Assembly (NCBI GenBank): GCA_030670905.1
Contig: DAOVAR010000001.1
Coordinates: 285-64,284 of the forward strand
DNA length: 64,000 nucleotides
Direction: 5' to 3'
Origin: Candidatus Bipolaricaulota bacterium
Lineage (GTDB): Bacteria > Bipolaricaulota > Bipolaricaulia > UBA7950 > UBA9294
Shown here piece by piece: positions 1,028 to 27,435 of this stretch. A program made the position numbers and the translations under genes. The stretch's first letter is position 1, and each line of letters opens with the position of its first letter. The notes below the pieces were generated by a model. The model worked only from the letters and a program-made list of their open reading frames with translations, had not been told where the DNA came from and did no database searches.

Positions 1028-1903
1028 CTAGATATTTATTCCAGCTTCCTGCAAAATTGCCGGCACATGGCATTCCCAGCCCATGGTCATCAGATGTATC
1101 CCTTGACACATCTCCCGCGTCTGCCGAATTATACGGGCAGCGATCTTGATGCTTGTAGCAACCTTATCGTCGGTCTTCTTCATCTCGTCGATGATCGAGT
1201 CAGGAACGTTTACTCCGGCTACGTTCTTGTTCATGTAACGGGCCATGCCGACCGACTTCAAGAGCACAAACCCGAGCATCACTGGAACGCCAAGGGCCTT
1301 CGCTGCTTCCATGAACCGTCCGAACAGTTCCGGGTCATAAACAGCCTGCGTCTGGAAGAACTGCGCCCCGGCTTCTATCTTGCGTTCCATCTTTAAGAGC
1401 TGAAGCTCCATCGGCTCATACCCCGGTGTCACCACCGCTCCTAGATGAAAGGTTGGAACCCCCTCCAGACTCTCTCCTGCCATATCTGTCCCAGCCGTCA
1501 AACCCTTGGCAGCCATAAGGAGAGAGACGGAATCGAGGTCAAACACCGATTTTGCCTGCGGGTGATCCCCCAAAGTAACGTGATCCCCGGTAAGGCAGAG
1601 GACGTTCTCAATGCCCAATGCATAAGAGCTCAGAAGATCGGATTGGAGGGCAATGCGGTTGCGGTCACGCGTTGCAAGCTGGAATACCGGTTCGAACCCT
1701 GATTCTTTGAGAAGACGGCAGGAGGCGAGCGACCCCAGTCGCATCACCGAGCTCTGCTGGTCAGTAACGTTGACGGCGTGCACCTTGCCGCGTAAGAACT
1801 CAGCGTTCTCCATCATCTCCGCAGTATCGGTTCCCTTTGGAGGGGCGACCTCAGCAGTGACTGCGAATTCTCCTCTTGTGAGAGCCTGTTGTAACGATGT
1901 CAT
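1028..1903 (-). CDS. metF: 5,10-methylenetetrahydrofolate reductase
   Basis: 291 aa MTHFR-family protein (FFQTQAVYD, TIM-barrel MetF-like). It overlaps the metV stop by 4 nt. Confidence 0.85.
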   Translation of the reverse strand: MTSLQQALTRGEFAVTAEVAPPKGTDTAEMMENAEFLRGKVHAVNVTDQQSSVMRLGSLASCRLLKESGFEPVFQLATRDRNRIALQSDLLSSYALGIENVLCLTGDHVTLGDHPQAKSVFDLDSVSLLMAAKGLTAGTDMAGESLEGVPTFHLGAVVTPGYEPMELQLLKMERKIEAGAQFFQTQAVYDPELFGRFMEAAKALGVPVMLGFVLLKSVGMARYMNKNVAGVNVPDSIIDEMKKTDDKVATSIKIAARIIRQTREMCQGIHLMTMGWECHVPAILQEAGINI

Positions 1904-2574
1904 CTGTTATCACTCCTAGCTTCATCCCGTTCCAGAACTAGTGTCGATGGATTCGTATTTACCGAGTAGTCATGCACCTGCACCGAGGAAGCAACAAACT
2001 CCTTAAGCCTTCCGATTTCCTTTAGACGATCGTAAATCTCTATCCATACACAGTCGTTATCCGGGTTCACCTCACACTTTTCGTCCTTTGCCCCGCCGCA
2101 GGGTCCATTCAGCAGGCCCTTGGGGCAGCGTGTTACCGGGCATAGTCCGCCTGTCAGGTCCAGGATGCACTCCCCGCACATAGAGCAGTACTCCTGAAAC
2201 TGACCGAATCGCTTTACTGTTCCCAAGAAGAGCGTGTTGTTTGTCGGGTGAACAACCTTGCCGCTCACCTCCTGCGCGATCTGTGCGCCGCCACCGCAGG
2301 ACATGACAACTAGAGAATCTGCCTGGGCGATCTCTTCCTTGGTCTTGCGAAACTCCTTTCTTGCTTCCAGGAGATTACATCCAGGATCAAGGATTACCCA
2401 GCCGGAGACAACTTTTCCTTCGTCCTCTAGGTGATCCCTCATTGCCTTTACCTCTTCTTCCCCACCTGTCTTACAGACCGTTGCGCACTCAGAACAGCCA
2501 ACAAGAAAGATGACCTTGTCCCTCTCTAGGGACTGCAGGATCTCAGGGAATGGCTTTGCTTTCGTGATTATCAA
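1900..2574 (-). CDS. metV: MetV-type small Fe-S/zinc-ribbon subunit associated with MetF (MTHFR C-terminal-like domain)
   Basis: 224 aa with Cys clusters (CSECATVC, CSMCGECILDLTGGLCPVTRCPKGLLNGPCGG), as in acetogen MetV. Translationally coupled to metF and folD. Confidence 0.7.
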   Translation of the reverse strand: MIITKAKPFPEILQSLERDKVIFLVGCSECATVCKTGGEEEVKAMRDHLEDEGKVVSGWVILDPGCNLLEARKEFRKTKEEIAQADSLVVMSCGGGAQIAQEVSGKVVHPTNNTLFLGTVKRFGQFQEYCSMCGECILDLTGGLCPVTRCPKGLLNGPCGGAKDEKCEVNPDNDCVWIEIYDRLKEIGRLKEFVASSVQVHDYSVNTNPSTLVLERDEARSDNR

Positions 2575-3533
2575 CCTCTACCTCCTCTTACTGAAGCCTC
2601 AGCCGATTTGACCGTGTTGGCAAGTAGCATCGCGGTCGTCATTGGACCTACCCCACCAGGTACAGGGGTGATAAACCCGGCCACATTCCTGACGGTGTCG
2701 AAATCCACGTCTCCAGTTACCCTTGTCTTGGTTTTTCCTTCTTTGTCTTGCACTTTTATCCGGTTGATCCCGGCGTCGATCACGATCGCCCCAGGCTTTA
2801 CCATGTTTGCAGTGATTAATCCCGGCTTACCGACGCCGACCACTAGAATATCGGCCCTTTTGGTGTGCGAAGCGAGGTCTTGTGTCGCGATATGGCAGAC
2901 CGTAGTTGTGCAAAAGTGAGCCATCAGTAAGAGCGCCATGGGCTTACCCACAATCTCGGAATGCCCTACGACCACTGCTTCCATTCCATAGAGATCTTTG
3001 CCCAACGATCGAATCAAGCGCATCATTCCAATCGCTGTACACGGCGCGGGCATAGGGAGCGGCCATGTTAAAGAACGCTCTAGCCACTCCTCGCAGCTTT
3101 GCTCGTCTACTGCCGGTTTCTTGAAGAATGGCTGGGCCGCGTACACGATTCCGCCTTGATTTGCTGCCGATACCCCTTCTACGTCCTTGGATGAAGCGAT
3201 TTGTTCCTGCAAAACCCGGGTCCGCACGTCTTTTGGTAAGGGCAACTGTACGATAATCCCATGTACTGTAGGATCCTGGTTCAGCCGCTCCACTGTATCG
3301 GTTAAGAATGTCTGGTCACTCGTTGGGGAAACCTCGACCAACTGGTACTCAATACCCACCTCAGCGCAGCTGCGCGCTTGACTCTTGGCATAGATATGTG
3401 CTCCCTTGTTCTCCGTTGCCAGTATGGCAGCCAATTTTGGTGAGATTCCTGCGGAGGAAAGCTCTCGAACCTCCGATTGAAGTGTTGCTCTAACTTGTCT
3501 TGCTGCTGCTTCTCCATCGATTATCTTACCCAT
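2571..3533 (-). CDS. folD: Bifunctional methylene-THF dehydrogenase / methenyl-THF cyclohydrolase
   Basis: MGKIIDGEAAARQVR... with GHSEIVGKPMALLL, TVCH and GINR..GDVDF..ITPVPGGVGPMT motifs. It is 320 aa because of a roughly 25-30 aa insertion between the dehydrogenase core and PCT. Confidence 0.88.
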   Translation of the reverse strand: MGKIIDGEAAARQVRATLQSEVRELSSAGISPKLAAILATENKGAHIYAKSQARSCAEVGIEYQLVEVSPTSDQTFLTDTVERLNQDPTVHGIIVQLPLPKDVRTRVLQEQIASSKDVEGVSAANQGGIVYAAQPFFKKPAVDEQSCEEWLERSLTWPLPMPAPCTAIGMMRLIRSLGKDLYGMEAVVVGHSEIVGKPMALLLMAHFCTTTVCHIATQDLASHTKRADILVVGVGKPGLITANMVKPGAIVIDAGINRIKVQDKEGKTKTRVTGDVDFDTVRNVAGFITPVPGGVGPMTTAMLLANTVKSAEASVRGGRG

Positions 3534-5382
3534 TGGTTCTCCTTTTTCGTATATCCTTGAAATACAGGCTTTCTATGAAGGTATCACTAAACCCTTTGTA
3601 ATAAGAAAGCTCACAGTATTGTATCTGCTCTGCTAATTGTTGAGCCTTAATCCACTCTCCCTGGTTAAGCAGGCACAGCTTAGCTCCCTGACCAGCAGCA
3701 TTCCCCACCGGCGTGAGCTTTTCTAAAGGGAATGGAGGTAGCATCCCAATGCGCAAGACACTCCCCCTTCGCACATAATTGCCAAAAGCACCGGCAAGGT
3801 AAACTGCATCTATATCCTCTGGGGCGGCACCCCACTCGCGCAGGACGATATCCACGCCAGAGCGGATTGCTCCTTTGGCGAGCTGCAGTTCGCGAATATC
3901 TTGTTGGGTGATGTAAATCGGCTTATCGCCACCGCTTACAAGGAATTGGGGTTGATTTCGCTCATCTGGTGTAACTCGCTTAGCGTAGTGGAGGTCGTCT
4001 TGGGTTAACAGCCTTCCCTGTTCGTCGATTAGTTCAACCTTCCGCAGTTCTGCGATGAGGTCAATGAGCCCTGAGCCGCAGATACCTTTGGGAATACTGT
4101 TACCAATGACCTCAAGTTCTACTTCACTATCGCCGCTGAGCAAGACATGAGCAATGGCTCCTGGGGTAGCGCTCATCCCATGTTTGATCAGCGCTCCCTC
4201 GAACGCCGGGCCCGCCGGAGTGGAACAAGCCAGCATTCTCTCTTTGTTCCCCAGAACAATCTCCGCATTGGTCCCAATGTCTACGAAGAGGCTCAACTTA
4301 CTGCTTTGATGAAGACGGGTGAATAGCACACCTGCTGTGATATCTGCTCCTACATAACCGGAAATCGCCGGAATGATGTAGACCTGCCCTTCGGGATTGA
4401 TCTCTAACCCTAGCTCCTCTGCCGAAATGATGGTTCCATCGCGCAGTACAGGAATGTAGGGGCTATGATCAATCTGGGAGGGGTCAACGGCGGTGAACAG
4501 ATGAAGCATTGTGGGATTGCCAGCCACAGTAACTTTGTAGATGTGGGCGGGCTCAATAGCAGCTGTCTGACAGAGTTGGTGGATCATTCTGTCGATCCCT
4601 GAGACTACCGCTTGTTGCAGTTCTTTCAATCCGGTCTGGTCGTGTTCATGGACGTGTCTGATGCGCGCAATCACGTCTGCGCCAAAGCTCGTCTGGGGAT
4701 TCATCTGTGAGCGGACACCTATCTCTTGGCCACTACCAAGGTCCAGCAGATACCCGGCAACCGTTGTCGTACCGATATCGATAGCTAGGCCGTAGAGTGC
4801 TCCAGTAGTATCTCCTGGCTCAACGTCTAGGGCTCTATTCTCTTCTTTGGTGATGGTCGCCCTGAAATTCTTGACCCGTAGGACATGAGGAACCCTACGC
4901 AGCACAGAGATAGGAAGAACCATTCGCTCCACACCAAGTCCTTCCTGTATGCGGAGCGTATCGGGTCGTTGGTCTTCTTCACCCGGTGAAGGTAACTCCA
5001 GATAGACCTTCTCCATTCCGGGGTCAAGCGCGATATATAGCTCCTGCTTGAGTAGTTCCTTGGCTTGAACGGTCTCATCAATCTGGGGAACTTCAAGGAC
5101 GATATCACAATTTACCCTTTGTTGACAGGAGAGTCGCCAGCGTTGATCCAACTCTACTCGAGAGAGGTGAACCTCTTCTGACTCCGTTGGAGGCTTCAGT
5201 CCTTTGTGGATCAAAACACGGCATTTGCCACAGGTTCCCATCCCCCCGCAGGAGCTGGGGATGGAGTAGCCATGGCGCACCAGGAAGCGAAAAAGAGTCT
5301 CCCCTTCTTCTACCTCTAGCTTATCCTCTTGAGGAAGAATAATAAGTGTATGGCTATTTGCCCGGGCCGTATCTCTTATCAC
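3526..5382 (-). CDS. Reductive activator of corrinoid proteins (RACo-like). N-terminal 2Fe-2S ferredoxin domain plus an ASKHA ATPase domain (DUF4445).
   Basis: 618 aa. The N-terminus has CGGMGTCGKC plant-type ferredoxin cysteines. The rest is an acetate/sugar-kinase-like fold (DIGTTT, GNPTM, DIGTNAE). GTG start with an AGGAGA RBS. Confidence 0.75.
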   Translation of the reverse strand: MIRDTARANSHTLIILPQEDKLEVEEGETLFRFLVRHGYSIPSSCGGMGTCGKCRVLIHKGLKPPTESEEVHLSRVELDQRWRLSCQQRVNCDIVLEVPQIDETVQAKELLKQELYIALDPGMEKVYLELPSPGEEDQRPDTLRIQEGLGVERMVLPISVLRRVPHVLRVKNFRATITKEENRALDVEPGDTTGALYGLAIDIGTTTVAGYLLDLGSGQEIGVRSQMNPQTSFGADVIARIRHVHEHDQTGLKELQQAVVSGIDRMIHQLCQTAAIEPAHIYKVTVAGNPTMLHLFTAVDPSQIDHSPYIPVLRDGTIISAEELGLEINPEGQVYIIPAISGYVGADITAGVLFTRLHQSSKLSLFVDIGTNAEIVLGNKERMLACSTPAGPAFEGALIKHGMSATPGAIAHVLLSGDSEVELEVIGNSIPKGICGSGLIDLIAELRKVELIDEQGRLLTQDDLHYAKRVTPDERNQPQFLVSGGDKPIYITQQDIRELQLAKGAIRSGVDIVLREWGAAPEDIDAVYLAGAFGNYVRRGSVLRIGMLPPFPLEKLTPVGNAAGQGAKLCLLNQGEWIKAQQLAEQIQYCELSYYKGFSDTFIESLYFKDIRKRRTNG

Positions 5383-5583: not shown

Positions 5584-6207
5584 TCAGGTAAGGCTTTTCG
5601 CCAGCTTGGTTGCACTGGCGGCATCCGGAGCGTAACCATCGGCGCCGATCTTATCAGCGTAGCCTTGGGTGACTGGTGCACCACCAATGATGACTTTGAC
5701 CTGATCTCGAAGAGAAGCCTGTTTGAGTGCATCGATAACCTCTGGCATGCGAATCATCGTTGTTGTTAACAGCGCAGACATACCAACGATATTGGGCTTG
5801 TGTTCCTTCACTGCTTTGACGAACTCCTCAGCCGTTATTTCCGCCCCGAGGTTTATGACCTCAAAACCTGCTCCTTCGATCATCATTGCTACAAGATCCT
5901 TACCAATATCGTGCAGGTCACCCTCAACAGTACCGATCACGAACTTGCCGCGCGCCTCCACGCCGGCCTCAACCAACAGTGGCTTGAGCAATGTAACAGC
6001 GCCTTTCATTGTCGCGGCTGAGATGAGCATCTCGGGGACGTAGCGTTCCCCATCTTCGTATTCTTTGCCTACGATATCCATCGCTGGGGTCAATGCCTGA
6101 TCGAGTATCTCGCGCGCTTCAATACCCTTTGCCAATGCTTGGTTAGTAAGTTCAGCGATACCTTCCATCTCTCCGGCCAGCACTGCTTGTTTGATCTTAT
6201 CAAGCAT
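5584..6207 (-). CDS. Cobalamin-binding corrinoid protein (MtaC/MtgC-like)
   Basis: 207 aa with an N-terminal helical B12-cap and a Rossmann B12-binding domain carrying GDLHDIGK (DxHxxG). Confidence 0.85.
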   Translation of the reverse strand: MLDKIKQAVLAGEMEGIAELTNQALAKGIEAREILDQALTPAMDIVGKEYEDGERYVPEMLISAATMKGAVTLLKPLLVEAGVEARGKFVIGTVEGDLHDIGKDLVAMMIEGAGFEVINLGAEITAEEFVKAVKEHKPNIVGMSALLTTTMIRMPEVIDALKQASLRDQVKVIIGGAPVTQGYADKIGADGYAPDAASATKLAKSLT

Positions 6208-7005
6208 CTACTTCCTCCTTCTACATTTTTGTTGTTTGATGTATTGCATACAGTAGTTATCGCGTCCGAGTAACGTGCGTGATGCGTATACGGTATTCAT
6301 CATACCTGAATCAGTTGGGTCCATGATCGCCCCGTCCAGTCCGGCCTCGATAAGCATCGCCAGGAAGGTCCGGTTAAGAAGGTGGCGATTGGGCAACCCA
6401 AAGGAGACGTTACTCACCGCCGCAAAAGTCTTTACCCCAAGCTCTTCCTTTACTCGACGGACTCCTTGAAGTGCCTGCGTGCCTTGCTCAATGCCGCTTC
6501 CGACAGACATGCAGATCATATCCACATAGAGGCGATCATGGCTGATGCCCGCTCGATCGCACTTCTCTAGGAGTGCGCGCGTCTCCTCCACGCGATCCTC
6601 CGCGGTCTTAGGCATACCGTGTTCTCCCATGGCAAGGCCGATCACTTCGGCGCCGCTCTCCACGGCAAGTTCCACAAATCTTACGCTTTTCTTCTCGTTG
6701 CTCATAGAGTTTATCACCGGCGCGGTTGAACAGGCTTTCAGTCCAGCCTCCATTGCATCGGGATTGGAAGTGTCAATGGACAAGCGCACATCCCTGCCTA
6801 GCTCGTCTTCCACAACCCCGATCAGCCACTTGAGATCACTTACCTCGTTCTCCATGGATTGTCCGGCATTTATGTCAATGATCTGCGCGCCCGCTTCTGC
6901 CTGACCGCGAGCGAGTCGACGAATTGAGAGATCATCTTTGTTGTCTATTGCTTTGCCAACCTCCCTACGTGAAGAATTGATGAGTTCTCCGATGATCAAA
7001 AACAT
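6208..7005 (-). CDS. Methyltetrahydrofolate:corrinoid methyltransferase (AcsE/MtrH-like pterin-binding protein)
   Basis: MFLIIGELIN... (compare AcsE MLIIGERIN) and LLNRTFLAMLIEAGLDGAIMD (compare AcsE LINRTFLAMAMACGL). 265 aa. GGAGG lies just upstream of the ATG. Confidence 0.85.
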   Translation of the reverse strand: MFLIIGELINSSRREVGKAIDNKDDLSIRRLARGQAEAGAQIIDINAGQSMENEVSDLKWLIGVVEDELGRDVRLSIDTSNPDAMEAGLKACSTAPVINSMSNEKKSVRFVELAVESGAEVIGLAMGEHGMPKTAEDRVEETRALLEKCDRAGISHDRLYVDMICMSVGSGIEQGTQALQGVRRVKEELGVKTFAAVSNVSFGLPNRHLLNRTFLAMLIEAGLDGAIMDPTDSGMMNTVYASRTLLGRDNYCMQYIKQQKCRRRK

Positions 7006-7015
7006 ATGTCCTCCG

Positions 7016-7153
7016 TTAATTAGTATGTGCTGGTCGCGGAATCCCGAATTGAGTCCTGATTCTTTCTAGAATAGTTGTCGGCGTGCTGTAAATACGTGCA
7101 ACTTCTTGATCTGACAGGACTTCGTATTTCCCACCTATTCCAGCAACCTCCAT
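7016..7153 (-). pseudogene. 45-codon remnant resembling the N-terminus of an MttB-superfamily (trimethylamine/glycine-betaine type) corrinoid methyltransferase
   Basis: My own translation gives MEVAGIGGKYEVLSDQEVARIYSTPTTILERIRTQFGIPRPAHTN, then stop. It is preceded by AAGGAGG. The pattern E-L-x-x-E-x-x-I-x-x-T-x-x-L-x(5)-G-I matches MttB-family N-termini. Only about 300 nt separate it from the upstream gene, so the roughly 1.4-kb body is missing. It is below the ORF-track size cutoff. Confidence 0.4.
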
Positions 7154-7266
7154 AAAGAGAGAACCTCCTTGCTTTGTTACGATGATCCACTTGACTCAGA
7201 AACGGCCAATGAACAACAGAAGGAAATATTTCTTGTTCTCCGTTGCGTAATATTTAAGTTTGAGCG

Positions 7267-7296
7267 AATGTTACAAAGGGGCTCATGGTTTTGTCA
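7267..7296 (-). promoter_or_regulatory. Candidate sigma-70 promoter for the methyltransferase/C1 operon (-35 TTGACA, 18-nt spacer, -10 TAACAT)
   Basis: Minus-strand sequence reads CCCTTGACAAAACCATGAGCCCCTTTGTAACAT. A second TTGACA lies 23 nt upstream. Confidence 0.3.
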
Positions 7297-7463
7297 AGGG
7301 CTCCAATTGCCCCTGTCAACACGTCTCCCAAAGTTCCCCCGAGGGTGCTGTCGTAAAAACGCAGATCTACTGGCACTAGCTATCTCAATCTCATGAGACA
7401 CGGCACCGTAGCGTGCGTTGGTGGTCTAGCAATAGGCACCTTTACGCAACCGTGGCCCGCAGT

Positions 7464-8582
7464 TCAATCAGAGTGGAGTCGCTCTAGGTCTTGGAGGGTG
7501 GACTCAAGGGCCTCAATGAACCAGACATTTTGGGCCTTGCTGCCAACTGTAACGCGAAGAAACAAAGGAAGATCATAGTCCGCGCAGGGCCGTACGATAA
7601 CACCCTTGTCCAACAACATTTCCTGGACTGCTGTGGCTTGGGGCCCAATCTTGACGAGAACGAAGTTAGTGTGGCTCGTGACATATGACAGGCCCAGGCG
7701 TTCAAATTCGTTATATAGGTAGATGCGTCCCGCGTGATTTGTTGCCACTGTTTTCTCGAGAAATGCTTGGTCTTCTAGAGCCGCAACACCCGCGGCTTGG
7801 GCGAGCAAGTTGACTGAAAAGGGCTCCTTCACCCTATTGAGAGGCGCTAGAATTTCAGGCTCCGCGATGGCATACCCCAAGCGGATACCGGCCAGACCAT
7901 AAATCTTGGAGAACGTACGCATGATCATTGTGTTAGTTTGGCCGTCTCGAATATAGCGCAGGCTATTCGGATAGTCAGGAGAATCAACCAGCTCGTAATA
8001 GGCTTCATCGAAGATGACAAGCACGTGCTTTGGCGTCTTGTCCATAAAAGCCTCTACTTCAGCTGCGGTGACAATCGTTCCGGTAGGATTGTTTGGGTTG
8101 CAGACAAAGATGAGCTTTGTCTTATCGCTAATCGCTTGAAGCATGGCTTCGAGGTCCAGTCCAAAGTTTCTCAGCGGTATCTTAACCAGCGCTGCTCTCA
8201 TCACGTGGGTGTAGATATCATAGACCGGAAATGAAGATTGACTTACGATTACTTCACTCTGTTCATCCAAGTACGCCAGGCAAGTCTGCATGATGAGCCC
8301 ATCGGCCCCATTGCCCACGGTTAGCTGTTCAGGTTCAATCCCAAGGTGCTCTGCAAGGGCCTTGAGCAGATTGTGGCTCTGTACGTCTGGATAAAGGTTC
8401 AAATCAGAAAGCCTTTCCTTTATTGCAGCTAATGCCCTAGGCGAAGGGCCAAGTGGGTTTTCGTTGGATGCCAGCTTAGTTACATCCTTGAGGCCGTATT
8501 CCCTTTGCACTTCATCAATGGGCTTACCCGGCACATATGCTTTGATGGCATTCAGGCCACGCTGTTGTCTGACATGGGTCAT
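7464..8582 (-). CDS. hisC: Class-II PLP aminotransferase of the histidinol-phosphate/aromatic aminotransferase family
   Basis: 372 aa with LASNENPLGPSP, NPNNPTG and SKIYGLAGIRLGY motifs. It is the last gene of the ior/acd operon, which suggests an aromatic or 2-oxoacid-forming role rather than histidine biosynthesis. Confidence 0.8.
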   Translation of the reverse strand: MTHVRQQRGLNAIKAYVPGKPIDEVQREYGLKDVTKLASNENPLGPSPRALAAIKERLSDLNLYPDVQSHNLLKALAEHLGIEPEQLTVGNGADGLIMQTCLAYLDEQSEVIVSQSSFPVYDIYTHVMRAALVKIPLRNFGLDLEAMLQAISDKTKLIFVCNPNNPTGTIVTAAEVEAFMDKTPKHVLVIFDEAYYELVDSPDYPNSLRYIRDGQTNTMIMRTFSKIYGLAGIRLGYAIAEPEILAPLNRVKEPFSVNLLAQAAGVAALEDQAFLEKTVATNHAGRIYLYNEFERLGLSYVTSHTNFVLVKIGPQATAVQEMLLDKGVIVRPCADYDLPLFLRVTVGSKAQNVWFIEALESTLQDLERLHSD

Positions 8583-8585
8583 CTA

Positions 8586-10625
8586 TTAGTTCCTCCTCTT
8601 TTGTATCACTCGCACGTCTCCAACTAGGACTCCCGTTGAGAACACGAATACAGGGTTCAGGTCGGCCTCTACAATCTCAGGGTAGTGGAAGGGAAGGCGC
8701 GAAAAATTGACTAAGATCTTTGCTACGGCACTTAGGTCTCGTGTTGGCTGTCCTCGTGTCCCTTCAAGGATAGGGAAGGCCTTAATCTCTCGCATCATTG
8801 CATTGGCCTCATCGTAGTCAAGTGGGGCAATGCGGAGTGAAATATCTCGAAGGATCTCGGTATAGATTCCCCCCACCCCAAAGGCAATCACCGGGCCGAA
8901 CTGCGCATCCCGTGAGAACCCGATCAGGATCTCCATGGCATCGGTGATCATTGGATAGATAATCACCCCCTGGAAATCATGCTCACCCGTTCGCTGTTCG
9001 ATCGAGTGAAATGCGGCGACTACTTCATCATCTGTGCGAATGCCAGTGATGACACCGCCAATCTCCGATTTGTGTATGATATCGTGGGACACGACCTTTA
9101 TCACCACCGGATAGCCGATCGAGCGGCTTCCACTCACGGCATCATCCATAGATGTAGCAAGCCGATATTCCGGAACCGGGATCCCGTTTTCACGCAACCA
9201 GGTCATTCCTTCCGGCTCGAGCAGAGGGCCGTCACTATCACTGAGGAGAGACCCTATCCTTGCCGGAATCTTTGGTAGCAGACGATTCTTCCTTTTGTAC
9301 TCCTCATAGGTTGCCATCTGTGAAAGTACCGTCACCGCCCGTTCCCCAGTAACGAAGTTGGGGACGCCATGCTCTTTCAGATAAGGCAGACTGAGAGCCA
9401 CCGTTCTGCCGGCCATAAAGTTTGCGGCAATGGGCTCTGTGACCGCGGTAGCAGCGCCGCAGATTCCCCGCGCAAGAGGAAGAGCATCTAGATAAGGCGT
9501 GCAGACGTTGATGGCTAGTGCGGCGTCATATTCTCCCAATGCTTCATGCAATGTTTTCTGATAGTCACTCTCAGTTCCCTCAACAGTGAGATCGATTGGG
9601 TTCTCCAATGAACAAACCGAGGGAAGAAAGGTGGAGAGCTTTGCTTGTAGGCTTGGGGTAGGTTCATCGAGGCGTAGCCCCACTGCTTCAGCTCGGTCCG
9701 CTGCGAGGACCCCGGGACCACCGGAATTAGTAACGATGACAAGACGTCGTCCCTTTACGGGGGGAAGCGTAACGAACCCTCGACACAGGTCGAACATCTC
9801 CTCTATTGTGTCCACACGAATTGCGCCACAGTGGCGGAAGGCGGCATCGTACACAGAGTCCGATCCAGCCATCGATCCCGTATGAGACAAGGTTGCCCGG
9901 TGGCCGGACACGCTACATCCCGCTTTGATCACTACAAGTGGCTTTTCTCGAGCTAGACGTTGCGCGGCCACCACGAACGCGCGGCCGTCAGAAACGCTTT
10001 CAATATATAGGGCAACAACCTTAGTATCGGAATCGTCGACAAGATAGTCAAGGAAATCGATCTCGTTGAGATCAACACCATTCCCATAGCTTGCGAACTT
10101 CGAGAACCCTAGCCCCTGCTCTTCAGCCCACGAAAGGACGGCACCCCCGAGAGCCCCGCTTTGAGTTACAAACGCTACATTGCCCTGTGGAGGATGGGTT
10201 TCCAGTGTTGGGTACAGGCGATATCTCGTGTTGATGATTCCAGCACAGTTTGGTCCGCACAAGCGGATTCCATATCGCTTTGCCACAGCCGCAATCCGTG
10301 CTTCTTCCTTGGTGTTCCCTACCTCTGAGAAGCCTGCGGTAATGATCACAGCAGCCTTCACGCCAGCTTTTCCACAATCCTGAAGAACGTCTGCCACTGT
10401 CGGAGCAGGCGAGGCGATTACAGCAAGATCAATGGACCGATCGATGTGAGAGACTGCGTCGTACCCAGGAACTCCGTGCGCGCCTTGGCCCTTAGGGTTA
10501 ACCGCACAAACATTATTGTAGCCCCCGTTAACAATCTTGCGGATCAACTCGTAGCCGAGTTTCCCTTTGGAGGTGGAACCGATTACCGCGACTCCACGAG
10601 GATAGAAGAGCTCTCTTAGGCTCAA
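8586..10625 (-). CDS. ADP-forming acyl-CoA synthetase (acetate/aryl-acetate--CoA ligase, NDP-forming), alpha and beta domains fused
   Basis: 679 aa. The N-terminal CoA-binding and succinyl-CoA-synthetase-like domains are followed by a C-terminal ATP-grasp domain. This is typical ACD architecture. Confidence 0.85.
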   Translation of the reverse strand: MSLRELFYPRGVAVIGSTSKGKLGYELIRKIVNGGYNNVCAVNPKGQGAHGVPGYDAVSHIDRSIDLAVIASPAPTVADVLQDCGKAGVKAAVIITAGFSEVGNTKEEARIAAVAKRYGIRLCGPNCAGIINTRYRLYPTLETHPPQGNVAFVTQSGALGGAVLSWAEEQGLGFSKFASYGNGVDLNEIDFLDYLVDDSDTKVVALYIESVSDGRAFVVAAQRLAREKPLVVIKAGCSVSGHRATLSHTGSMAGSDSVYDAAFRHCGAIRVDTIEEMFDLCRGFVTLPPVKGRRLVIVTNSGGPGVLAADRAEAVGLRLDEPTPSLQAKLSTFLPSVCSLENPIDLTVEGTESDYQKTLHEALGEYDAALAINVCTPYLDALPLARGICGAATAVTEPIAANFMAGRTVALSLPYLKEHGVPNFVTGERAVTVLSQMATYEEYKRKNRLLPKIPARIGSLLSDSDGPLLEPEGMTWLRENGIPVPEYRLATSMDDAVSGSRSIGYPVVIKVVSHDIIHKSEIGGVITGIRTDDEVVAAFHSIEQRTGEHDFQGVIIYPMITDAMEILIGFSRDAQFGPVIAFGVGGIYTEILRDISLRIAPLDYDEANAMMREIKAFPILEGTRGQPTRDLSAVAKILVNFSRLPFHYPEIVEADLNPVFVFSTGVLVGDVRVIQKRRN

Positions 10626-11218
10626 GACGTCCCTCTAACACGCAAGCCGGCATCAAATGCAGCCACATTGTGCTTTGCTCTACGCGGCCACCGTGCTCGA
10701 ACAACCTCCGTCATCTCGTCGGCATTGAGCACTTCGTCCAATCTTGTGTTTCCAAATGCCGCTCCAAGCACGAAGATGTTCGCGGCTACGTATCCCCCGT
10801 CGATTTTGGGAAGCTCTTTTGGATCGAGATAGATCAGTCGAGCGTTACTAACTCGGATGGCCTCCAGCACCGATTCGAGCGATGGGTAGGCAGCTTCTCC
10901 AAGCATCACCGCGGTTGGCTCCCACGCGTGACCATATAGCAGGAAGTCGCCTTCAGGCCGCGCGTACCGTACTCCCTTCAGCGCTTCAGAGCGTTCCATG
11001 GCAATCACAAGATGAGCCCCATCTTCTCGGATGTGTGGTCCTACTCCCCTTCGCCCCAATCGTAACTCGGCCTTTACGAACCCTCCACGCTGTGCCATTC
11101 CCTTCGTGGGAAGGAAACTGACTGGATGCCCCTTGTGAACAGCTGCCCGCATAATCAGGTCAGCAAGCGTCAGAATACCCTGACCACCAACGCCAACAAG
11201 GTAGATGTCGTAGCTCAT
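10622..11218 (-). CDS. iorB: Indolepyruvate:ferredoxin oxidoreductase, beta subunit
   Basis: MSYDIYLVGVGGQGILT... is a pyruvate/ketoisovalerate oxidoreductase gamma-like domain. The likely start is the internal ATG at 11218, overlapping the iorA stop (ATGA). The ORF-track start at 11266 would overlap iorA by 52 nt. Confidence 0.85.
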   Translation of the reverse strand: MSYDIYLVGVGGQGILTLADLIMRAAVHKGHPVSFLPTKGMAQRGGFVKAELRLGRRGVGPHIREDGAHLVIAMERSEALKGVRYARPEGDFLLYGHAWEPTAVMLGEAAYPSLESVLEAIRVSNARLIYLDPKELPKIDGGYVAANIFVLGAAFGNTRLDEVLNADEMTEVVRARWPRRAKHNVAAFDAGLRVRGTS

Positions 11219-13086
11219 GTTCCGTCCTCCTTCTCGAGGGCTCCTGTCGGGCAAACCGCGGCACACAGTCCGCAGCCGTTACATAGAGCGGCGTCGATAA
11301 CGATGGATTCGTGCTTAATTGACAGGGCGGGACATCCAGTGGCGGTGACACACTGTTTGCACAGTACGCACTTCTTGGAGATCAAGCGCACATTTCCCGT
11401 GCGTTTGCCCTGCCGCCTTACTTGGATGGCACATTCGCGACGGGAGAGGACAACCTTTACCCCCGGAAGGGTGAGACATCCTTCGATGGTGGAGGTTGCT
11501 CCCTTTAGATCGTATGGATCGATGACAAAGAATTGGTCTACCCCGAGTCCTGGAATCACCCGCGCAAGGTCGATTCGGCGTCCCCCCGTCCGTTGGAATG
11601 TCTGATCCGTGCCTGGATTCACCTGCATCCCCGTCATGCTTGTCCATCCGTTGTCCATGATGATAAGAGTCAATGGAGTCTGGTGCTGAATCGCGTTGAG
11701 CAATCCCGGAATCCCGGCGTGGAAAAACGTTGAATCTCCAATAGTAGCGATTACCGGTGTCTTAACCCCTCCATGAACGTAGCCTTGTGCCAGACTGACA
11801 CTTGCTCCCATGGAGACCTCCGTCCACACCGTGTTAAACGGTGGGTTCATTCCGAGGATTGTACACCCGATGTCGCCAGTGATGATCACCTCGTCTTTGT
11901 CAAGATCTAGATTCTGGATCGCTTGATTGATGGCCATATAGGTTCCGCGGTGGGGACATCCGGCGCAGACGGTAATTGGACGTCGAGCCGCAAGTGTCTC
12001 TGTTGCTCTATTCCCTTTGAAGCGATCCCCAGGGATGCCTAATCTGAGCGCTATATTGAGCCCTTGTAGCACATGATCAACATCGTACTCCCCCACGCGG
12101 CTTAAGGGCCCATCATCAAGTTTGCCGATGATCAGGCCGGCGAATCCGGTCCTATGTGCTTCGATGTGAAGACCGCGTTCAAGGTGCGGTTCTAACTCTT
12201 CCAAGGTAAGGATCGACTTGCAGCGAGCAAACAGCTTTTGTACATCTGCTGCTGGAAATGGAGTTGTTGTCACTGTACGCAAAATCGAGACCTTTGTCTT
12301 GTCGAATCCATACTCGACAGCAAGGTCAAACGCCTCTTCCAGATACGCCACCGCTGCCCCAACAGCCACAATTCCAAGGCCGCCGGGGTTTTCAGCTAAT
12401 TGCAAAGAGTTTAGCTCCATTTCCTGTATGACCTCGCTTGCCTTTTCGAGGCGGGCAATCACATCCCGGTGTTGCGTGATACAGATAGCGGCGCCGGCTT
12501 TGGTGTACTTGGCGATGTTCCGCTCGAGGATTGGTATGCGGTCGGCAGGCGGTAGCGGATCAGCTATCTGTAGGGCTGTCTTGGCATTGGCAATCGAGGT
12601 AACCAACCTAATTAGGACTGGTGTCTTTACGCGTTCCGAGAGCTCAAAAGCTACCTGCGTCAACCGATAGGTGTCCCTTATCGAGCTTGGTTCGAGCATT
12701 GGCAGGTCCGACATCAAGGCAAATCCACGCGTGTCCTGCTCAGCCATCCCCGCGCTAGCGCCCGGATCGTCGGCAACGTAGATCACTAGTCCACCATTAC
12801 ATCCGGAATAAGCGATAGAGATTAGCGAGTCGTAGGCTACATTCAGCCCCGACATCTTCATCGTACACAGAGCTCGTTGGCCGGTCCATGCCGCTCCGGC
12901 GGCTATTTCAAAGGCAACCTTCTCGTTTACACTCCACTCCACATATCTACCGGGAAGATCCATCGCCAACAGGCTCGTCAGCGCGCCGGTGGAGGGGGTA
13001 CCTGGATAACCGGTGACTACCTTTACACCGGCCTGTAGCGCCCCATAGGCAAGGGCTTCATTGCCACTCAGTACCTTAATTTGCAA
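11215..13086 (-). CDS. iorA: Indolepyruvate:ferredoxin oxidoreductase, alpha subunit (TPP-binding, with C-terminal 2x[4Fe-4S] ferredoxin domain)
   Basis: 623 aa with TPP-binding GDIGC and GDSTFFHAG motifs. The C-terminus has CVLCKQC...CPALS and CNGCGLCAAVCP cysteine motifs. Confidence 0.9.
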   Translation of the reverse strand: MQIKVLSGNEALAYGALQAGVKVVTGYPGTPSTGALTSLLAMDLPGRYVEWSVNEKVAFEIAAGAAWTGQRALCTMKMSGLNVAYDSLISIAYSGCNGGLVIYVADDPGASAGMAEQDTRGFALMSDLPMLEPSSIRDTYRLTQVAFELSERVKTPVLIRLVTSIANAKTALQIADPLPPADRIPILERNIAKYTKAGAAICITQHRDVIARLEKASEVIQEMELNSLQLAENPGGLGIVAVGAAVAYLEEAFDLAVEYGFDKTKVSILRTVTTTPFPAADVQKLFARCKSILTLEELEPHLERGLHIEAHRTGFAGLIIGKLDDGPLSRVGEYDVDHVLQGLNIALRLGIPGDRFKGNRATETLAARRPITVCAGCPHRGTYMAINQAIQNLDLDKDEVIITGDIGCTILGMNPPFNTVWTEVSMGASVSLAQGYVHGGVKTPVIATIGDSTFFHAGIPGLLNAIQHQTPLTLIIMDNGWTSMTGMQVNPGTDQTFQRTGGRRIDLARVIPGLGVDQFFVIDPYDLKGATSTIEGCLTLPGVKVVLSRRECAIQVRRQGKRTGNVRLISKKCVLCKQCVTATGCPALSIKHESIVIDAALCNGCGLCAAVCPTGALEKEDGT

Positions 13087-13149
13087 TTGACTCCTCCATC
13101 TGCCTGCAGTGTTGTTCCTCGCCTAATACTCTTCACTACATCGATTTGC

Positions 13150-15477
13150 TCATCCTTTCTTGGTGTGATCAAGGGCGGCAAGGACCCTCTCCGGTGTCAA
13201 TGGTAGGTTGTGGATGCGGACGCCTATGGCGTTTGCCACAGCGTTCGCCACCGCTGGAGCAACCGGTGTTAGCGCAGGCTCGCCAATCCCTTTGGCGCCG
13301 AACGGACCGACGCCTGTTCCCGACTCTAGGATGATCGCCTTCGTGGTAGGAAGATCCTTTGCTGTGGGGATCAGATACTCGGACAATGAAGGCGTCCGGA
13401 TTACGCCATCCTTGACTTGTACCTCTTCCATGAGAGCGTAGCCGATTCCCTGGGCGCTTCCGCCTTGGATCTGTCCCTCAACGGCGATTGGATTGAATGC
13501 CCGACCCACATCATGGCATCCGACGGACTTGAGCACTGTAATCTCACCGGTCTTGGTATCCACCGCCACCTCAATGGCGTGCGCACTGAAGGTAAAGTCT
13601 GGAAAGATGTCTCCTTGGAGGTTCTCGGGGTTGAGCTTATCAGCGAATGGAGCCGCAAACAGAGCTAGGTGTTGCAGCTTCAGCCCATCAGCGGCGCACA
13701 TCTTGCTCAGATCCGCTAGCGAAAGCCATTGCTGCGGATCGCTCTTGATGAACACCTTGTTCTCAGCTAGATCCAGGTTGTTGGGCTTTTCCCTAAAATG
13801 CTCTGCCGCGCGATCGAGCAACACTTCCCGCACCATCTTGGCCGCCTTGAGCGTGGCATTGCCGGACATGTAGAGCTGCCTGGTAGCAGTTGTTGTGCCT
13901 GCCAGTGGTGTGACCGCCGAATCTGAGTTGTAGAAGGTCACGTCTGTGAGTGACACCCCCAGCACTTCGGCAGCGATCAGACACAGACTGTTTGCCTGAC
14001 CTGCGCCCAGGTCGGGTGCGCCACACCGCACCACGATTGTGCCATCTTGCTCGATACCAACCCAGGAACGTGAGGTATCATGGAACCACATGATCCGACC
14101 ATAGCTCTGCATCGTGGTGGCAAAACCCTGGCCCATCTTGATTGCATCGTCAGAAATGTTCTCTTTCTTTCCCAGAGCTGCCAGCGCTTGTGTGGCTTCT
14201 TCCTCTAGCCAAACCGCGCTCTTGATCTGCTGGCCGATAGCGTTGGAGTCACCGGTCTTCAGATAGTTGATCTTGCGGAACTCAAGCGGGTCCATCGCTA
14301 AGGCTTTTGCCATCTCATCCATCTGTTGCTCGTACGCTACGGCAGCCTGCGCACCTCCGAAGCCTCGAAATGCACTGGCAAAAGGATTATTAGTGGCAAC
14401 CGAGACACTATCAACGGTAAGGTTTTCGATTCGATAAGGGCCGCATGAGGTGACAGTAGCGTAGAGAAGGACGTAGGGACTGAGATAGGGGTAAGCCCCT
14501 GAATCAGAGATCATGTTGATCTTGGCGCCGGTGATGCGGCCATTGTTCTTCACGCCGGTGCGGTGAGTGATGATGAACGGATGGCGCTTGGAATGTGCGA
14601 GGATAGATTCCTCTCGCGTGTACGCCAACCGCACAGGGCGCCCTGTTTCTTTTGTTAGGAGCGCCAGGAAGATCTCCACGGTAATGTCCTCCTTACCACC
14701 AAATCCGCCTCCAATCATAGTACCTCGAACGCGTACCTTGTTGTGTGGTACCCCTACGGCTTGAGCAATCGATCGGAAGTGTTCTACCACCTGTGTGCAG
14801 ACGCGGATGTTGATCACGTCTTGATCATCCATCCAGGCTACACCGGCTTCTGGTTCAATATAGGAGTGATCAAGGAATGGCATGCGAAAGGTGTTCTCCA
14901 CGATCAGATCAGCCGAGGCCAACCCCGCTTCCGCGTTCCCCTTGCGGATCTTCCAGCTGGAGACGATATTGTCTGGCTCGTGGATTATTGGCGCGCCTGG
15001 CTTCATCGCTTCGAGTGGGTCGAAGACGCCTGGCAGCGCATCGTATTCAATCTCGATCAGTTCAATGGCTCGCTCTGCGATGGCAAGGGTCTCCGCCGCG
15101 ACAAGTGCGATAGGCTCACCAACGAATCGTACTCCGCGTGTGGCTAGCACCGGCGCATCTGACTCCTTGCGCCGTTCCTGTCCCGTCTGGCCAGGCATGT
15201 CGGTGATTAGTTTCCCGTCTGGCAAGTCATCTGCTGTCAACACACAGGCCACGCCCGCAAGCGCCCGTGCCTTGTTCACATTCAACTGCTTGATATGTGC
15301 TGAGGGTTCACTGCTGCGAAAGACCTTGGCGTGAAGCATGTTTGGCATTGTGAAATCACCGGCGTAGACGGTTGCGCCTACTGCCTTGCCGAGCGCGTCG
15401 ACGCGCCGCAATGGTCTCCCGACTTGGCGAAGGAGAGGAAGAGCTGGCTGGGGTAGCGCTTTGCCCTTCGCCGTCAT
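13150..15477 (-). CDS. Molybdopterin-binding large subunit of a xanthine-dehydrogenase-family hydroxylase (enzyme A)
   Basis: 775 aa with the GGGFGGK signature and a C-terminal FGAKGIGEPAL active-site Glu motif. Confidence 0.85.
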   Translation of the reverse strand: MTAKGKALPQPALPLLRQVGRPLRRVDALGKAVGATVYAGDFTMPNMLHAKVFRSSEPSAHIKQLNVNKARALAGVACVLTADDLPDGKLITDMPGQTGQERRKESDAPVLATRGVRFVGEPIALVAAETLAIAERAIELIEIEYDALPGVFDPLEAMKPGAPIIHEPDNIVSSWKIRKGNAEAGLASADLIVENTFRMPFLDHSYIEPEAGVAWMDDQDVINIRVCTQVVEHFRSIAQAVGVPHNKVRVRGTMIGGGFGGKEDITVEIFLALLTKETGRPVRLAYTREESILAHSKRHPFIITHRTGVKNNGRITGAKINMISDSGAYPYLSPYVLLYATVTSCGPYRIENLTVDSVSVATNNPFASAFRGFGGAQAAVAYEQQMDEMAKALAMDPLEFRKINYLKTGDSNAIGQQIKSAVWLEEEATQALAALGKKENISDDAIKMGQGFATTMQSYGRIMWFHDTSRSWVGIEQDGTIVVRCGAPDLGAGQANSLCLIAAEVLGVSLTDVTFYNSDSAVTPLAGTTTATRQLYMSGNATLKAAKMVREVLLDRAAEHFREKPNNLDLAENKVFIKSDPQQWLSLADLSKMCAADGLKLQHLALFAAPFADKLNPENLQGDIFPDFTFSAHAIEVAVDTKTGEITVLKSVGCHDVGRAFNPIAVEGQIQGGSAQGIGYALMEEVQVKDGVIRTPSLSEYLIPTAKDLPTTKAIILESGTGVGPFGAKGIGEPALTPVAPAVANAVANAIGVRIHNLPLTPERVLAALDHTKKG

Positions 15478-15959
15478 TCTTGAGCCTTCTGTTGCATCAT
15501 CTTCTTCGCTGCCATCTTGATCGCACTGATGATCTGAGCGTAGCCGGTGCAGCGGCAGAGGTTTCCCGAGATCGCTTCGCGGATCTCAGTCTCGGAAGGG
15601 TTCGGGTTCTCATCAAGCAGCGCCTTCGCTGCGATGATCATCCCTGAGGTGCAGTACCCGCACTGGACAGCGCCTGCATCTGCAAAGGCTTCCTGTAGCG
15701 AGTGAGGGCTCTCCATTGTTCCTAATCCAGCATTTGTGAGGATCCGCGCACCATCTGCTTGCCAGGCGAGGACGAGGCAACTATTGATGACTTTCCCATT
15801 CAGCTCTACAGCACAGGCTCCGCAATCTCCCTTTTCACATCCGTTCTTAACATCTGTATAGTTCAGGCTTCGCAGCGCTTCAAGCAAGGTTACATTAGGA
15901 AACAGTGTCACCTGATGCCGACGACCATTGATATTAAGAGTGATAACCTTTGCCTTCAT
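15474..15959 (-). CDS. [2Fe-2S]-binding small subunit of the Mo-hydroxylase (enzyme A)
   Basis: 161 aa with CEKGDCGACAV and QCGYCTSGM...CRCTGY motifs (CoxS/XdhC-like). Confidence 0.9.
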   Translation of the reverse strand: MKAKVITLNINGRRHQVTLFPNVTLLEALRSLNYTDVKNGCEKGDCGACAVELNGKVINSCLVLAWQADGARILTNAGLGTMESPHSLQEAFADAGAVQCGYCTSGMIIAAKALLDENPNPSETEIREAISGNLCRCTGYAQIISAIKMAAKKMMQQKAQE

Positions 15960-16834
15960 TAGTGTTTCTTCTCCTTCGTGCCTTTGGCTAGGTTTGTTAG
16001 CAGACGTCTTACTAGCGCTGTTATCACCCGCTTCCTATAGGCTGCTGATCCACGGATATCACCAATAGCCTGCGTTGCCTCCGAAGCCAGCTGCGCGGCC
16101 TGGGCGATGACCTCTGGAGTCAATGGTCCCCCATCCAGGAAGTCTTCGGCAGCGGCGACGCGGATCGGCGTGGGGGCAACCGCTCCAAGCGCGATACGTA
16201 CTTGGTCGCAATCCCCCGTGTCCTTGCGGTGTAGCATTACGGCAATGCTTAGCACGGAGATCGCGTCCGCCTTACGTAAGCCGAGCTTGCGAAACACGCT
16301 GACACTCCCTTCGGGTGGAATAGGCCAGCGAATAGCAGTTATCAATTCTTTGGGGTGACGAACCGTCTTGCGCACGCCGGTGATGAATTCCTTCAGTGGA
16401 ACGGTGCGTTTTGTATCCTTACTTAACAATTCTACCTTGGCACCAAGGACAAGGAGAGGTGGCGCGGCATCCGCGGCTGGGGAACCATAGGCAAGGTTAC
16501 CTCCAATTGTTGCACGGTTGCGAATCAGTGGGTTGGCAAAGACTGTCGCAGCCTGTTGCAGTGCTTGGCCGTGCTTAGCGATGAGCACATTGCGCTTTAG
16601 GTCTGCGATTGTTACTGCACTGCCCACATCTGCATAACCATCTTCCACATGAACGCCACGCAACTCAACCAATCCACCAATGTTCATCAACGTCTGAGGA
16701 CGAGAGAGTCTTCCACGCAGGTCGACAAGAAGGTTTGTCCCACCGGCAAGTGGCATGACTGTAGAACTCTCATCCATCATCTCAAGGGCCTCCGGTAGAG
16801 TTCTTGGCATCAAGAGCTCAAACTCTGGCAGCAT
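15959..16834 (-). CDS. FAD-binding medium subunit of the Mo-hydroxylase (enzyme A)
   Basis: 291 aa CoxM-like protein with AGGTNLLVDL and a CO-dehydrogenase flavoprotein C-terminal domain. Confidence 0.85.
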   Translation of the reverse strand: MLPEFELLMPRTLPEALEMMDESSTVMPLAGGTNLLVDLRGRLSRPQTLMNIGGLVELRGVHVEDGYADVGSAVTIADLKRNVLIAKHGQALQQAATVFANPLIRNRATIGGNLAYGSPAADAAPPLLVLGAKVELLSKDTKRTVPLKEFITGVRKTVRHPKELITAIRWPIPPEGSVSVFRKLGLRKADAISVLSIAVMLHRKDTGDCDQVRIALGAVAPTPIRVAAAEDFLDGGPLTPEVIAQAAQLASEATQAIGDIRGSAAYRKRVITALVRRLLTNLAKGTKEKKH

Positions 16835-18290
16835 CCGACCCTCCTTCTCTTGTCCCCTCGGCGCAAGATTCTACGGCACGGACGATACTTGCATACCCCG
16901 TACAACGACAACGATTTCCCTTTAAGTAGTCTCGGATCTCATCTTCTGTAGGTGATGGTATCTCTGCGAGGAGTTTCTTGCTCATCATCAGCATCCCCGG
17001 CGTACAGTACCCACACTGGAACGCGTTGTGATCGATGAACGTCTGCTGTAAGGGATCAAGTTCACCGTCTGGCCTGGCAAGACCTTCAACGGTGACGATT
17101 TCACTCTCATCGGCGGTAACAGCGAGCACTAAACAGGCAAGGACCGGCTCTCCGTTGAGCCACACCGTGCACGCTCCGCACTCGCCGATGCCGCAACCGT
17201 ACTTGGGCCCGGTCAGTTCCAACCGTTCTCGTAACACATTGAGCAGCAACTCGTTTGGAGCCACATCGAGCTGGTGATTTACTCCATTGACGAGAATAGT
17301 AATTGAGTAGTTCTCATTAGCATTCACTCGGAATGACACGGGTACCTTGTGAGATAGTGAGGATGTCTCAACAGGCTTCGCTTCCCGCAACTCGCCCGCC
17401 CGCTCCCATGCTTTACATAAGGCGTCCTGAGTCAAAGGCGTGGCAACCTCGCGACGGTACCACGCGCTTGAACGTGCATCATCAACTGGCAGGATCGCCT
17501 TGGACGCGACCCGTCCCGCCCTAAGAGCGAGCTTGGCATCGAACGTCTTACCAATTAGCATTTTTTCTGCCTCTGGAGCACGTAGAACTGTTGGCCCTAC
17601 TGAACCATACGCTAGTCGGCAATCGACAACGCGTTGTTCGTCACGAACAATCACCGCGGCAACGCTGATCTTGGCAAGATCGGCGCGCACTCGTGACAAT
17701 TTTAGAAACGCACTTCCCGTATTTGGTTTCGCAATAGGGAGCCGCACAGCGGTGAGGATTTCCCCTTCCCTTAGCTTGACTTCCCCCGGCCCGAGCAGGA
17801 GTTCAGCAATGGGTAAGACCCGTTCTCCGTGTGGGCCAGCCAGCACCACTTTCGAATCGAACGCTACAAGCGCTGGAACCGTATCCGAGGCAGGGGACCC
17901 ATTACAGAGGTTCCCACCGATCGTTCCCATTATCTGGATTTGCGTGGAGCCAAAGGAAGCACAAGCTTCAGCAAGAGCGGTGTAAGTCTCTTGTATCTGT
18001 GGTGCGGTGCTGAGCTGACGAACAGTGGTGAGAGCGCCGATCAAAAATACCTCGTCCTTATTATTCATCCCTTTGAGTTCAGGCAGGTTGGCGATATTGA
18101 TAACGCATCGTGGCGCCCTCTGCTCCATCTTCATCCATACGAGGAGATTGGTACCTCCGGCAAGCACCTCGGCGTCTTTACCAAACTCTTGTAAGCTCCC
18201 AATCGCTTCTTTGAGCGTTGCTGGCTGCACGTAGTCGAACCTGTGCATGAGGAGGTGTGTATTGGTCATATTGTATCTATTCTTGCTCAT
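16818..18290 (-). CDS. Fused FAD-binding and [2Fe-2S] subunit of a second Mo-hydroxylase (enzyme B)
   Basis: 490 aa. Residues 1-290 are CoxM-like (AGGTNLLVWM). Residues about 330-490 are CoxS-like (CGIGECGACTV, QCGYCTPGM...CRCTGY). Confidence 0.8.
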   Translation of the reverse strand: MSKNRYNMTNTHLLMHRFDYVQPATLKEAIGSLQEFGKDAEVLAGGTNLLVWMKMEQRAPRCVINIANLPELKGMNNKDEVFLIGALTTVRQLSTAPQIQETYTALAEACASFGSTQIQIMGTIGGNLCNGSPASDTVPALVAFDSKVVLAGPHGERVLPIAELLLGPGEVKLREGEILTAVRLPIAKPNTGSAFLKLSRVRADLAKISVAAVIVRDEQRVVDCRLAYGSVGPTVLRAPEAEKMLIGKTFDAKLALRAGRVASKAILPVDDARSSAWYRREVATPLTQDALCKAWERAGELREAKPVETSSLSHKVPVSFRVNANENYSITILVNGVNHQLDVAPNELLLNVLRERLELTGPKYGCGIGECGACTVWLNGEPVLACLVLAVTADESEIVTVEGLARPDGELDPLQQTFIDHNAFQCGYCTPGMLMMSKKLLAEIPSPTEDEIRDYLKGNRCRCTGYASIVRAVESCAEGTREGGSDAARV

Positions 18291-27260: not shown

Positions 27261-27435
27261 CACTGAATCACTTCCTTCGAGCTCTGATTCCATTCTCCAG
27301 AGTATATTCTCTTTCTTTTGTTCTCTTGTTGCAATAGCCGTTTCGAAGTGACGGGAACAAGAGGCATTGGCTCGGCGTAGCCTAATGTGGGGGAAACTCT
27401 GCGATAACGATTGCTGGGATTCATCGCAGGGCTGA

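Follow-up and report, generated by a model that had tools for sequence, protein, structure and literature searches.

A 45-codon reading frame upstream of a corrinoid-linked MT2 gene in Bipolaricaulota as a probable relic of an MttB-family methyltransferase gene

A short open reading frame (ORF) of 45 codons, which precedes the gene of a methyltetrahydrofolate:corrinoid methyltransferase (MT2), was analysed in a window of 64,000 nucleotides of Candidatus Bipolaricaulota DNA; positions given with no locus label refer to this window. The ORF is very probably a non-functional, in-frame internal-deletion relic of an MttB-family gene of the non-pyrrolysine, MtgB-like type, which is still decaying with the downstream genes intact. 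The peptide showed homology to both ends of MttB, an intact mttB occupies the same position in relatives, the frame is broken or lost in sister alleles, and the relic differs from the neighbouring genes in the selection acting on it. The ancestral operon would have had the order mttB-MT2-corrinoid protein-RACo-FolD-MetVF. Of a gene of roughly 484 codons, about 440 (~1.3 kb) would have been lost from the interior in a single in-frame deletion. This would have fused a 5' segment of ~24-31 codons to a 3' segment of ~14-21 and left in place the promoter, the leader, the ribosome-binding site, the start, the stop and the ribosome-binding site of MT2, so that the promoter would still drive MT2 and the genes behind it. 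After the deletion, the relic, presumably with no function as a peptide, would have drifted near-neutrally and, in sister lineages, picked up frameshifts or been removed; MT2 and the corrinoid protein stayed under constraint.

Operon layout and homology of the peptide to both ends of MttB

The features of the locus and of related loci are summarized in Table 1. The preliminary description had placed the ORF behind a TTGACA/TAACAT promoter and an AAGGAGG site, about 300 nt from an upstream hisC-like gene; all three elements were found on the minus strand as tabulated, and the gap was measured as 310 nt. Between the stop of the ORF and the MT2 ATG there are 10 nt, which include the MT2 Shine-Dalgarno (SD) sequence. 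MT2 scored 272.9 bits on NF005719 against a cut-off of 259, and the top NCBIfam match of the corrinoid protein was the glycine betaine-specific corrinoid protein MtgC with 217 bits, which is under the cut-off. MT1 candidates of the MttB, URO-D and MtaB types were searched elsewhere in the 64-kb window and none was found, in accordance with the earlier statement that MT2, the corrinoid protein and the activator are left with no MT1.

Table 1. Positions of the features at the window locus and at related loci
Feature	Position	Strand	Basis or remark
Sigma-70-like promoter of the operon, TTGACA-18 nt-TAACAT	7268-7297	minus	consensus scan, 10/12 positions
Conserved 5' leader block AAATATTACGCAACGGAGAACAAGAAATATTTCCTTCTG	7217-7255	minus	common to intact mttB operon leaders
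Shine-Dalgarno AAGGAGG of the relic (presumably once that of mttB)	7164-7170	minus	10 nt before ATG; sequence reading
45-codon ORF and TAA	7016-7153	minus	encodes MEVAGIGGKYEVLSDQEVARIYSTPTTILERIRTQFGIPRPAHTN
Relic codons 1-24, MEVAGIGGKYEVLSDQEVARIYST, assigned to the mttB 5' end	7082-7153	minus	BLASTP and N-terminal profile
Relic codons 25-31, PTTILER, probable deletion-junction zone	7061-7081	minus	N- and C-terminal registers score about equally
Relic codons 32-45 and TAA, IRTQFGIPRPAHTN, assigned to the mttB 3' end	7016-7060	minus	C-terminal profile and 53%-identity paralogue match
Spacer with MT2 ribosome-binding site (C GGAGG ACAT)	7006-7015	minus	ORF TAA before, MT2 ATG after
hisC-like aminotransferase	7464-8582	minus	upstream of the 45-codon ORF
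MT2 (pterin-binding)	6208-7005	minus	PF00809, E 8e-28
Corrinoid protein (MtgC-like)	5584-6207	minus	PF02607 and PF02310
RACo-type reductive activase of corrinoid proteins	3526-5382	minus	Fer2, RACo_linker, Raco_middle, RACo_C_ter
FolD, MetV, MetF (methyl branch of folate C1 metabolism)	1028-3533	minus	Pfam THF_DHG_CYH, DUF5981, MTHFR
Amino-acid fermentation, molybdoenzyme and formiminotransferase-cyclodeaminase genes	8586-20526 (-), 24122-24760 (+), 46644-47558 (-)		
Intact mttB leaders	L014 951-1050; L004 29-125; L007 6457-6545; L020 2863-2960		window counterpart 7217-7255
Leader-(relic)-MT2-corrinoid protein module	L065 6884-8427; L012 2792-4335; L013 3320-5114		
MttB relics of other lineages	L031 5652-5990; L032 613-951; L018 308-673; L016 18-133; L045 5268-5564		

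The ORF had been described as matching the N-terminal helix of MttB-superfamily proteins. Compared by BLASTP with the syntenic MttB of locus L007, the peptide gave 33.1 bits (E 8e-8 for a single comparison), with residues 7-37 aligned to MttB 17-47 at 45% identity. A profile of 16 MttB N-termini from the fetched loci scored the peptide at 22.4 bits against a best score of 10.5 among 20,000 shuffles, and the alignment of residues 5-32 to profile positions 5-31 sets start to start. The N-terminal match thus stood, but it is not the only one, as there is a second match, not described earlier, of the last ~16 residues to the MttB C-terminus. A profile of 11 syntenic MttB C-termini gave 9.5 bits for the peptide, a short match reached by 1 of 20,000 shuffles, in which residues 25-43 fall on positions 14-32 of 35 and the stop lies at most one codon from the MttB stop. 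Sensitive tblastn aligned residues 25-41 (PTTILERIRTQFGIPRP) to extreme MttB C-termini, and the end of one MttB paralogue, PATIDSRIRRRFDIRLP followed by the stop, is 53% identical to this segment over 17 residues.

The position of the junction was analysed by a register-fixed splice scan, column by column. A junction after residue 24, 29, 30 or 31 scored 67-70.5, with lower scores outside this range, and the spliced model exceeded the model with the N-terminus only by about 14 BLOSUM units. The window junction reads TAAC-GGAGGACAT-ATG and that of the intact mttB-MT2 operons (L004, L007, L019, L023, L024) reads TAAC-AGA-GGAGGACAC-ATG, the layout TAAC..GGAGGACA.ATG being common to both. The C-terminal match together with this intact-type arrangement of stop and spacer argues for an in-frame internal deletion and against a premature stop. 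The preliminary description had the ORF simply stopping early after loss of a ~1.4-kb MT1 body; the loss of the body, here estimated as ~1.3 kb, is supported by synteny and by the homology of both ends, and the early stop is replaced by an in-frame fusion. The DNA-level alignment placed the breakpoint no finer than codons 24-31, because none of the loci examined has an intact allele dating from near the time of the deletion; the nearest intact MttB is only ~45% identical to the relic, while MT2 is 77-80% identical.

The similarity to MttB came out in targeted tests alone. With E values of up to 10 allowed, the Pfam models, including PF06253, gave no peptide match; there was none in NCBIfam or among the PDB sequences either, and the search of 1.84 billion representative proteins returned no MttB at E <= 0.001; of the checks suggested earlier for the peptide, the family model therefore failed and the targeted BLASTP succeeded. 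Similarly, when MttB proteins were run by tblastn against the window, the relic was missed at default settings and recovered with sensitive seeding. The matches of a word-indexed search of 5.8 billion proteins were confined to two more short ORFs, identical at 96% and 82%, which come from other assemblies with the genomic context of the window. The 45-aa ORF falls short of a functional PF06253 member, a TIM barrel of ~450-500 aa scoring over the threshold; its descent from MttB is indicated by an N-terminus in register with the start, a C-terminus in register with the stop and spacer, and the syntenic position. A further MttB-like tblastn match at 24918-25040 (+) was weak and antisense to a 138-aa ORF (24775-25191, minus strand), NusB-like as judged from its sequence, and it was taken as a chance match.

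Intact mttB genes in relatives, their leaders and independent relics

The loci of relatives were gathered with MT2 as the anchor. At least 12 loci in which MT2 is 77-80% identical (L004, L007, L014, L017, L019-L024, L067, L075) have an intact PF06253 gene encoding 484 aa directly before MT2, exactly at the position of the relic, and the proposed synteny check therefore came out in favour of a lost gene. The 3' end of the intact mttB lies 14-18 nt before the MT2 start. These genes carry no in-frame stop and thus no pyrrolysine. In the PDB the intact syntenic MttB matched the glycine betaine:corrinoid methyltransferase MtgB of Desulfitobacterium hafniense (2QNE) and the glycine betaine methyltransferase 9YCE with 272 bits each, which are its closest solved relatives, and the trimethylamine methyltransferase 7XCL with 224 bits; on TIGR02369, whose cut-off is 525, it reached 410 bits. 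The mttB position is taken by a URO-D family gene in some relatives, and MT1 is absent altogether from the locus in L025, L026 and L028. L065, with MT2 95% identical, is a contig of a Candidatus Bipolaricaulota MAG. The intact MttB upstream of MT2 in L029 (MT2 92% identical) belongs to another subfamily, is followed by a spacer of 220 nt and shows no resemblance to either end of the relic, and was set aside as of no help in dating the deletion.

In relatives it is common for two or three MttB paralogues to lie within a stretch of 15 kb (L007, L072, L075). Metagenome surveys have reported mttB homologues in non-methanogens, among them Bipolaricaulota, and describe the substrates of the non-pyrrolysine homologues as unknown (PMC12343361, PMC9324843). 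One locus with a bacterial-type mttB-MT2 operon and MT2 80% identical to that of the window, L066 (QMYR01000133.1), comes from a MAG labelled 'Candidatus Thorarchaeota archaeon B65_G9'. It appears to be the same as L014 (Ga0164318_10015918), with equal length, the same MT2 coordinates, 100% identical MttB and a matching scaffold number, and was probably mis-binned.

Separate MttB relics were found directly upstream of MT2 in other lineages. In the group of L031, L032, L018 and L016 (MT2 76-81% identical) the first ~96-125 codons remain, with frameshifts, and in L045 (MT2 52% identical) only the last 82 codons are left. In L031 the 5 kb upstream also contain two more MttB-like ORFs, one of them without its C-terminal end, as well as a second corrinoid protein. 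These independent relics indicate that loss of the MT2-adjacent mttB is recurrent: the substrate-specific MttB was lost repeatedly and independently in uncultured Bipolaricaulota-like lineages, and the shared MT2/corrinoid module was kept. Such a pattern agrees with a modular arrangement, several MttB paralogues serving a single MT2/corrinoid pair.

The consensus scan of the region gave 2 promoter sites against 0.6 expected. Both hexamers are kept in all close relatives, and the promoter aligns with TTGACA/TTGCAG...TAGAAT/TACAAT upstream of the intact mttB genes. A leader DNA profile built with the window excluded had its top match in the 64 kb at 7255-7217, a weak but position-specific match (E 0.028, 10.4 bits). 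Rfam covariance models on the 310-nt leader/intergenic region gave only chance-level matches (E >= 0.7), and the RNA folding energies of the leader and the upstream conserved block (z +0.3 and +0.6) were nothing above chance.

The leaders of intact mttB operons have the common motif TATTACG..ATGG...TTAGAAAGTTTTCCTTCGAGAAAGGAG, a possible anti-SD hairpin TTCCTT-CGAGA-AAGGAG, and a 19-codon uORF (M..LE.F.SRK.....CC[MK]*) that overlaps the mttB start; in the window leader the uORF ATG is replaced by ACG. About 110 nt upstream of the promoter (7298-7410, minus strand; GTGCCGTGTCTCATGAGATTGAGATAGCTAGTGCCAGTAGATCTGCG...) are kept even in L013, where the sequence beyond this block is unrelated to the window. 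The block contains a 10-bp palindrome, TCTCATGAGA, which could be an operator.

Decay of the relic and competing readings

The relic region was aligned across loci with MT2 95-100% identical. The 45-codon frame is intact in the window, L001, L003, L038 and L011. One nucleotide is inserted after codon 10 in L013 and near the 3' end in L002, each giving a +1 frameshift, and both shifted frames stay open to just past the MT2 start. In L012 and L065, 172 nt including the SD and the entire ORF are missing, and the leader runs straight into the ribosome-binding site of MT2. The dN/dS ratio (omega) of the relic was 0.81 (L011), 0.57 (L013) and 0.61 (L002), values from 135 coding sites that are statistically indistinguishable from moderate constraint, and L001 and L038 each showed 2 non-synonymous and 0 synonymous changes. 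For the same genome pairs omega was 0.10-0.38 for MT2 and 0.09-0.27 for the corrinoid protein. The relic thus drifts almost neutrally, in contrast to the purifying selection on MT2 and the corrinoid protein. The earlier suggestion of a decaying system therefore holds for the relic alone, with its frameshifts, its losses and its omega of 0.6-0.8, and does not extend to MT2 and the corrinoid protein (0.09-0.38). Since these two are under purifying selection, a partner methyltransferase encoded elsewhere is the better guess, and the retained MT2, corrinoid protein and RACo likely work with it, as the nearby MttB paralogues and the recurrent loss of mttB in relatives also suggest.

Among the loci of this alignment the leader-(relic)-MT2-corrinoid protein module was observed in three genomic contexts. 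In L065 and L012 it is followed not by RACo/FolD/MetVF but by a convergent ParA/Mrp-like gene and an Ala_racemase_N-domain gene; only the last 34 codons of hisC are left in L012, and the genes upstream in L013 are carbamoyltransferase- and D-glutamate cyclase-like.

The promoter-leader block common to these Bipolaricaulota methyl-transfer operons may be an undescribed cis-regulatory element, with the relic ORF surviving because its translation still sets MT2 expression; the candidate parts are the motif TATTACG..A..GAAA..TTCCTTC, the possible anti-SD hairpin and the uORF overlapping the mttB start in intact operons. This was considered improbable. A related and slightly less probable proposal is that the relic persists as an upstream ORF whose translation matters and whose sequence does not, ribosomes being delivered to the MT2 start by coupling or unmasking. 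The strong SD, the ATG and the closeness of the stop to MT2 with its own SD agree with this proposal, as do the two frameshifted alleles open past the MT2 start, and selection independent of sequence would give a near-neutral omega. However, this layout is simply inherited from the mttB-MT2 junction, and the open frames are not significant, given that 42 random codons stay open with a chance of about 0.13. Moreover, L012 and L065 have neither the ORF nor its SD, and yet their MT2 and corrinoid protein are intact at 94-96% protein identity, with omega of 0.14-0.19 against the window.

It was also asked of the peptide whether it could be a small stand-alone helix-turn-helix (HTH) DNA-binding regulator of the operon, a reading held to be very unlikely. 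By eye, LSDQEVARIYSTPTTILERIRTQFGIP resembles the HTH pattern, and among the top non-self matches in the search of 1.84 billion representatives were proteins with tandem HTH-like repeats, P0123 (E 5.6e-7) and P0126 (E 7.2e-4). These E-values are sums over 4-11 weak repeats, with at most 11.5 bits for the best single stretch, and in the same phmmer run single MttB N-termini reached 12-16 bits, above any single HTH-repeat stretch. Two of the four repeat-protein matches (P0124, P0125) are not HTH proteins, and all four (P0123-P0126) were rejected as repeat-summed matches with weak per-stretch scores. Pfam HTH models gave no match to the peptide, and the HTH-like stretch straddles the inferred deletion junction. 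In-silico fusions of intact MttB ends scored 1-12 bits against the HTH-repeat proteins, by which the resemblance is neither explained nor supported. The disrupted alleles at MT2 identities of 95-96% (frameshifts in L013 and L002, absence in L012 and L065), along with the omega of 0.57-0.81, largely refute the regulator. The case carries a caution for short-peptide searches, as a 45-aa query reached E 5.6e-7 purely by summing tandem-repeat matches.

That the ORF does not descend from MttB and arose by chance in an ordinary leader, or is an assembly artefact, has next to no probability left. Short ORFs are common and the curated models gave no match, but the targeted BLASTP (E 8e-8), the shuffle tests of both ends and the exact positional match to mttB in relatives speak against chance. 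The identical allele occurs in at least five independent assemblies (JGI, Logan, ENA) and is therefore not an assembly artefact; this reading is already refuted. The deletion relic of mttB accordingly remains the preferred reading, and it is ordinary gene decay.

Relation to known systems and neighbouring genes

Compared with the enzymes of the non-pyrrolysine MttB superfamily (PF06253), the relic keeps ~24-31 codons at the 5' end and ~14-21 at the 3' end and lacks the whole TIM-barrel body (~440 codons), and so it cannot be an enzyme. Of the three-component systems of the MtgB/MtgC/MtgA type, the window locus has conserved versions of MT2, of the MtgC-like corrinoid protein and of the RACo activase and lacks MT1, whereas relatives have the full set with MttB first. 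In metabolic reconstruction of these MAGs, the presence of MT2, corrinoid protein and RACo should not be taken as a sign that the organism uses a given quaternary amine. Like other bacterial internal-deletion pseudogene relics, the window relic shows near-neutral substitution, frameshifts, further deletion and retained flanking signals. Unlike the usual ones, its deletion is in frame and both translation signals are kept, and therefore the relic still resembles a well-expressed small gene. Gene callers do call it, and annotation needs caution with such a pseudogene fragment that has a promoter, a strong SD and an ATG.

Upstream of the operon an amino-acid fermentation set was observed, comprising IorAB (indolepyruvate:ferredoxin oxidoreductase-like), an ADP-forming acyl-CoA synthetase and the hisC-like aminotransferase. 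The window also has two sets of xanthine-dehydrogenase-family molybdoenzymes and the two halves of formiminotransferase-cyclodeaminase, encoded 22 kb apart. These genes fit a lifestyle of folate-linked C1 metabolism and amino-acid catabolism. An EF-P ORF at 26700-27713 (minus strand) was mechanically called as 337 aa; its EF-P domains begin at residue 156, and translation probably starts a long way downstream of the listed ATG.
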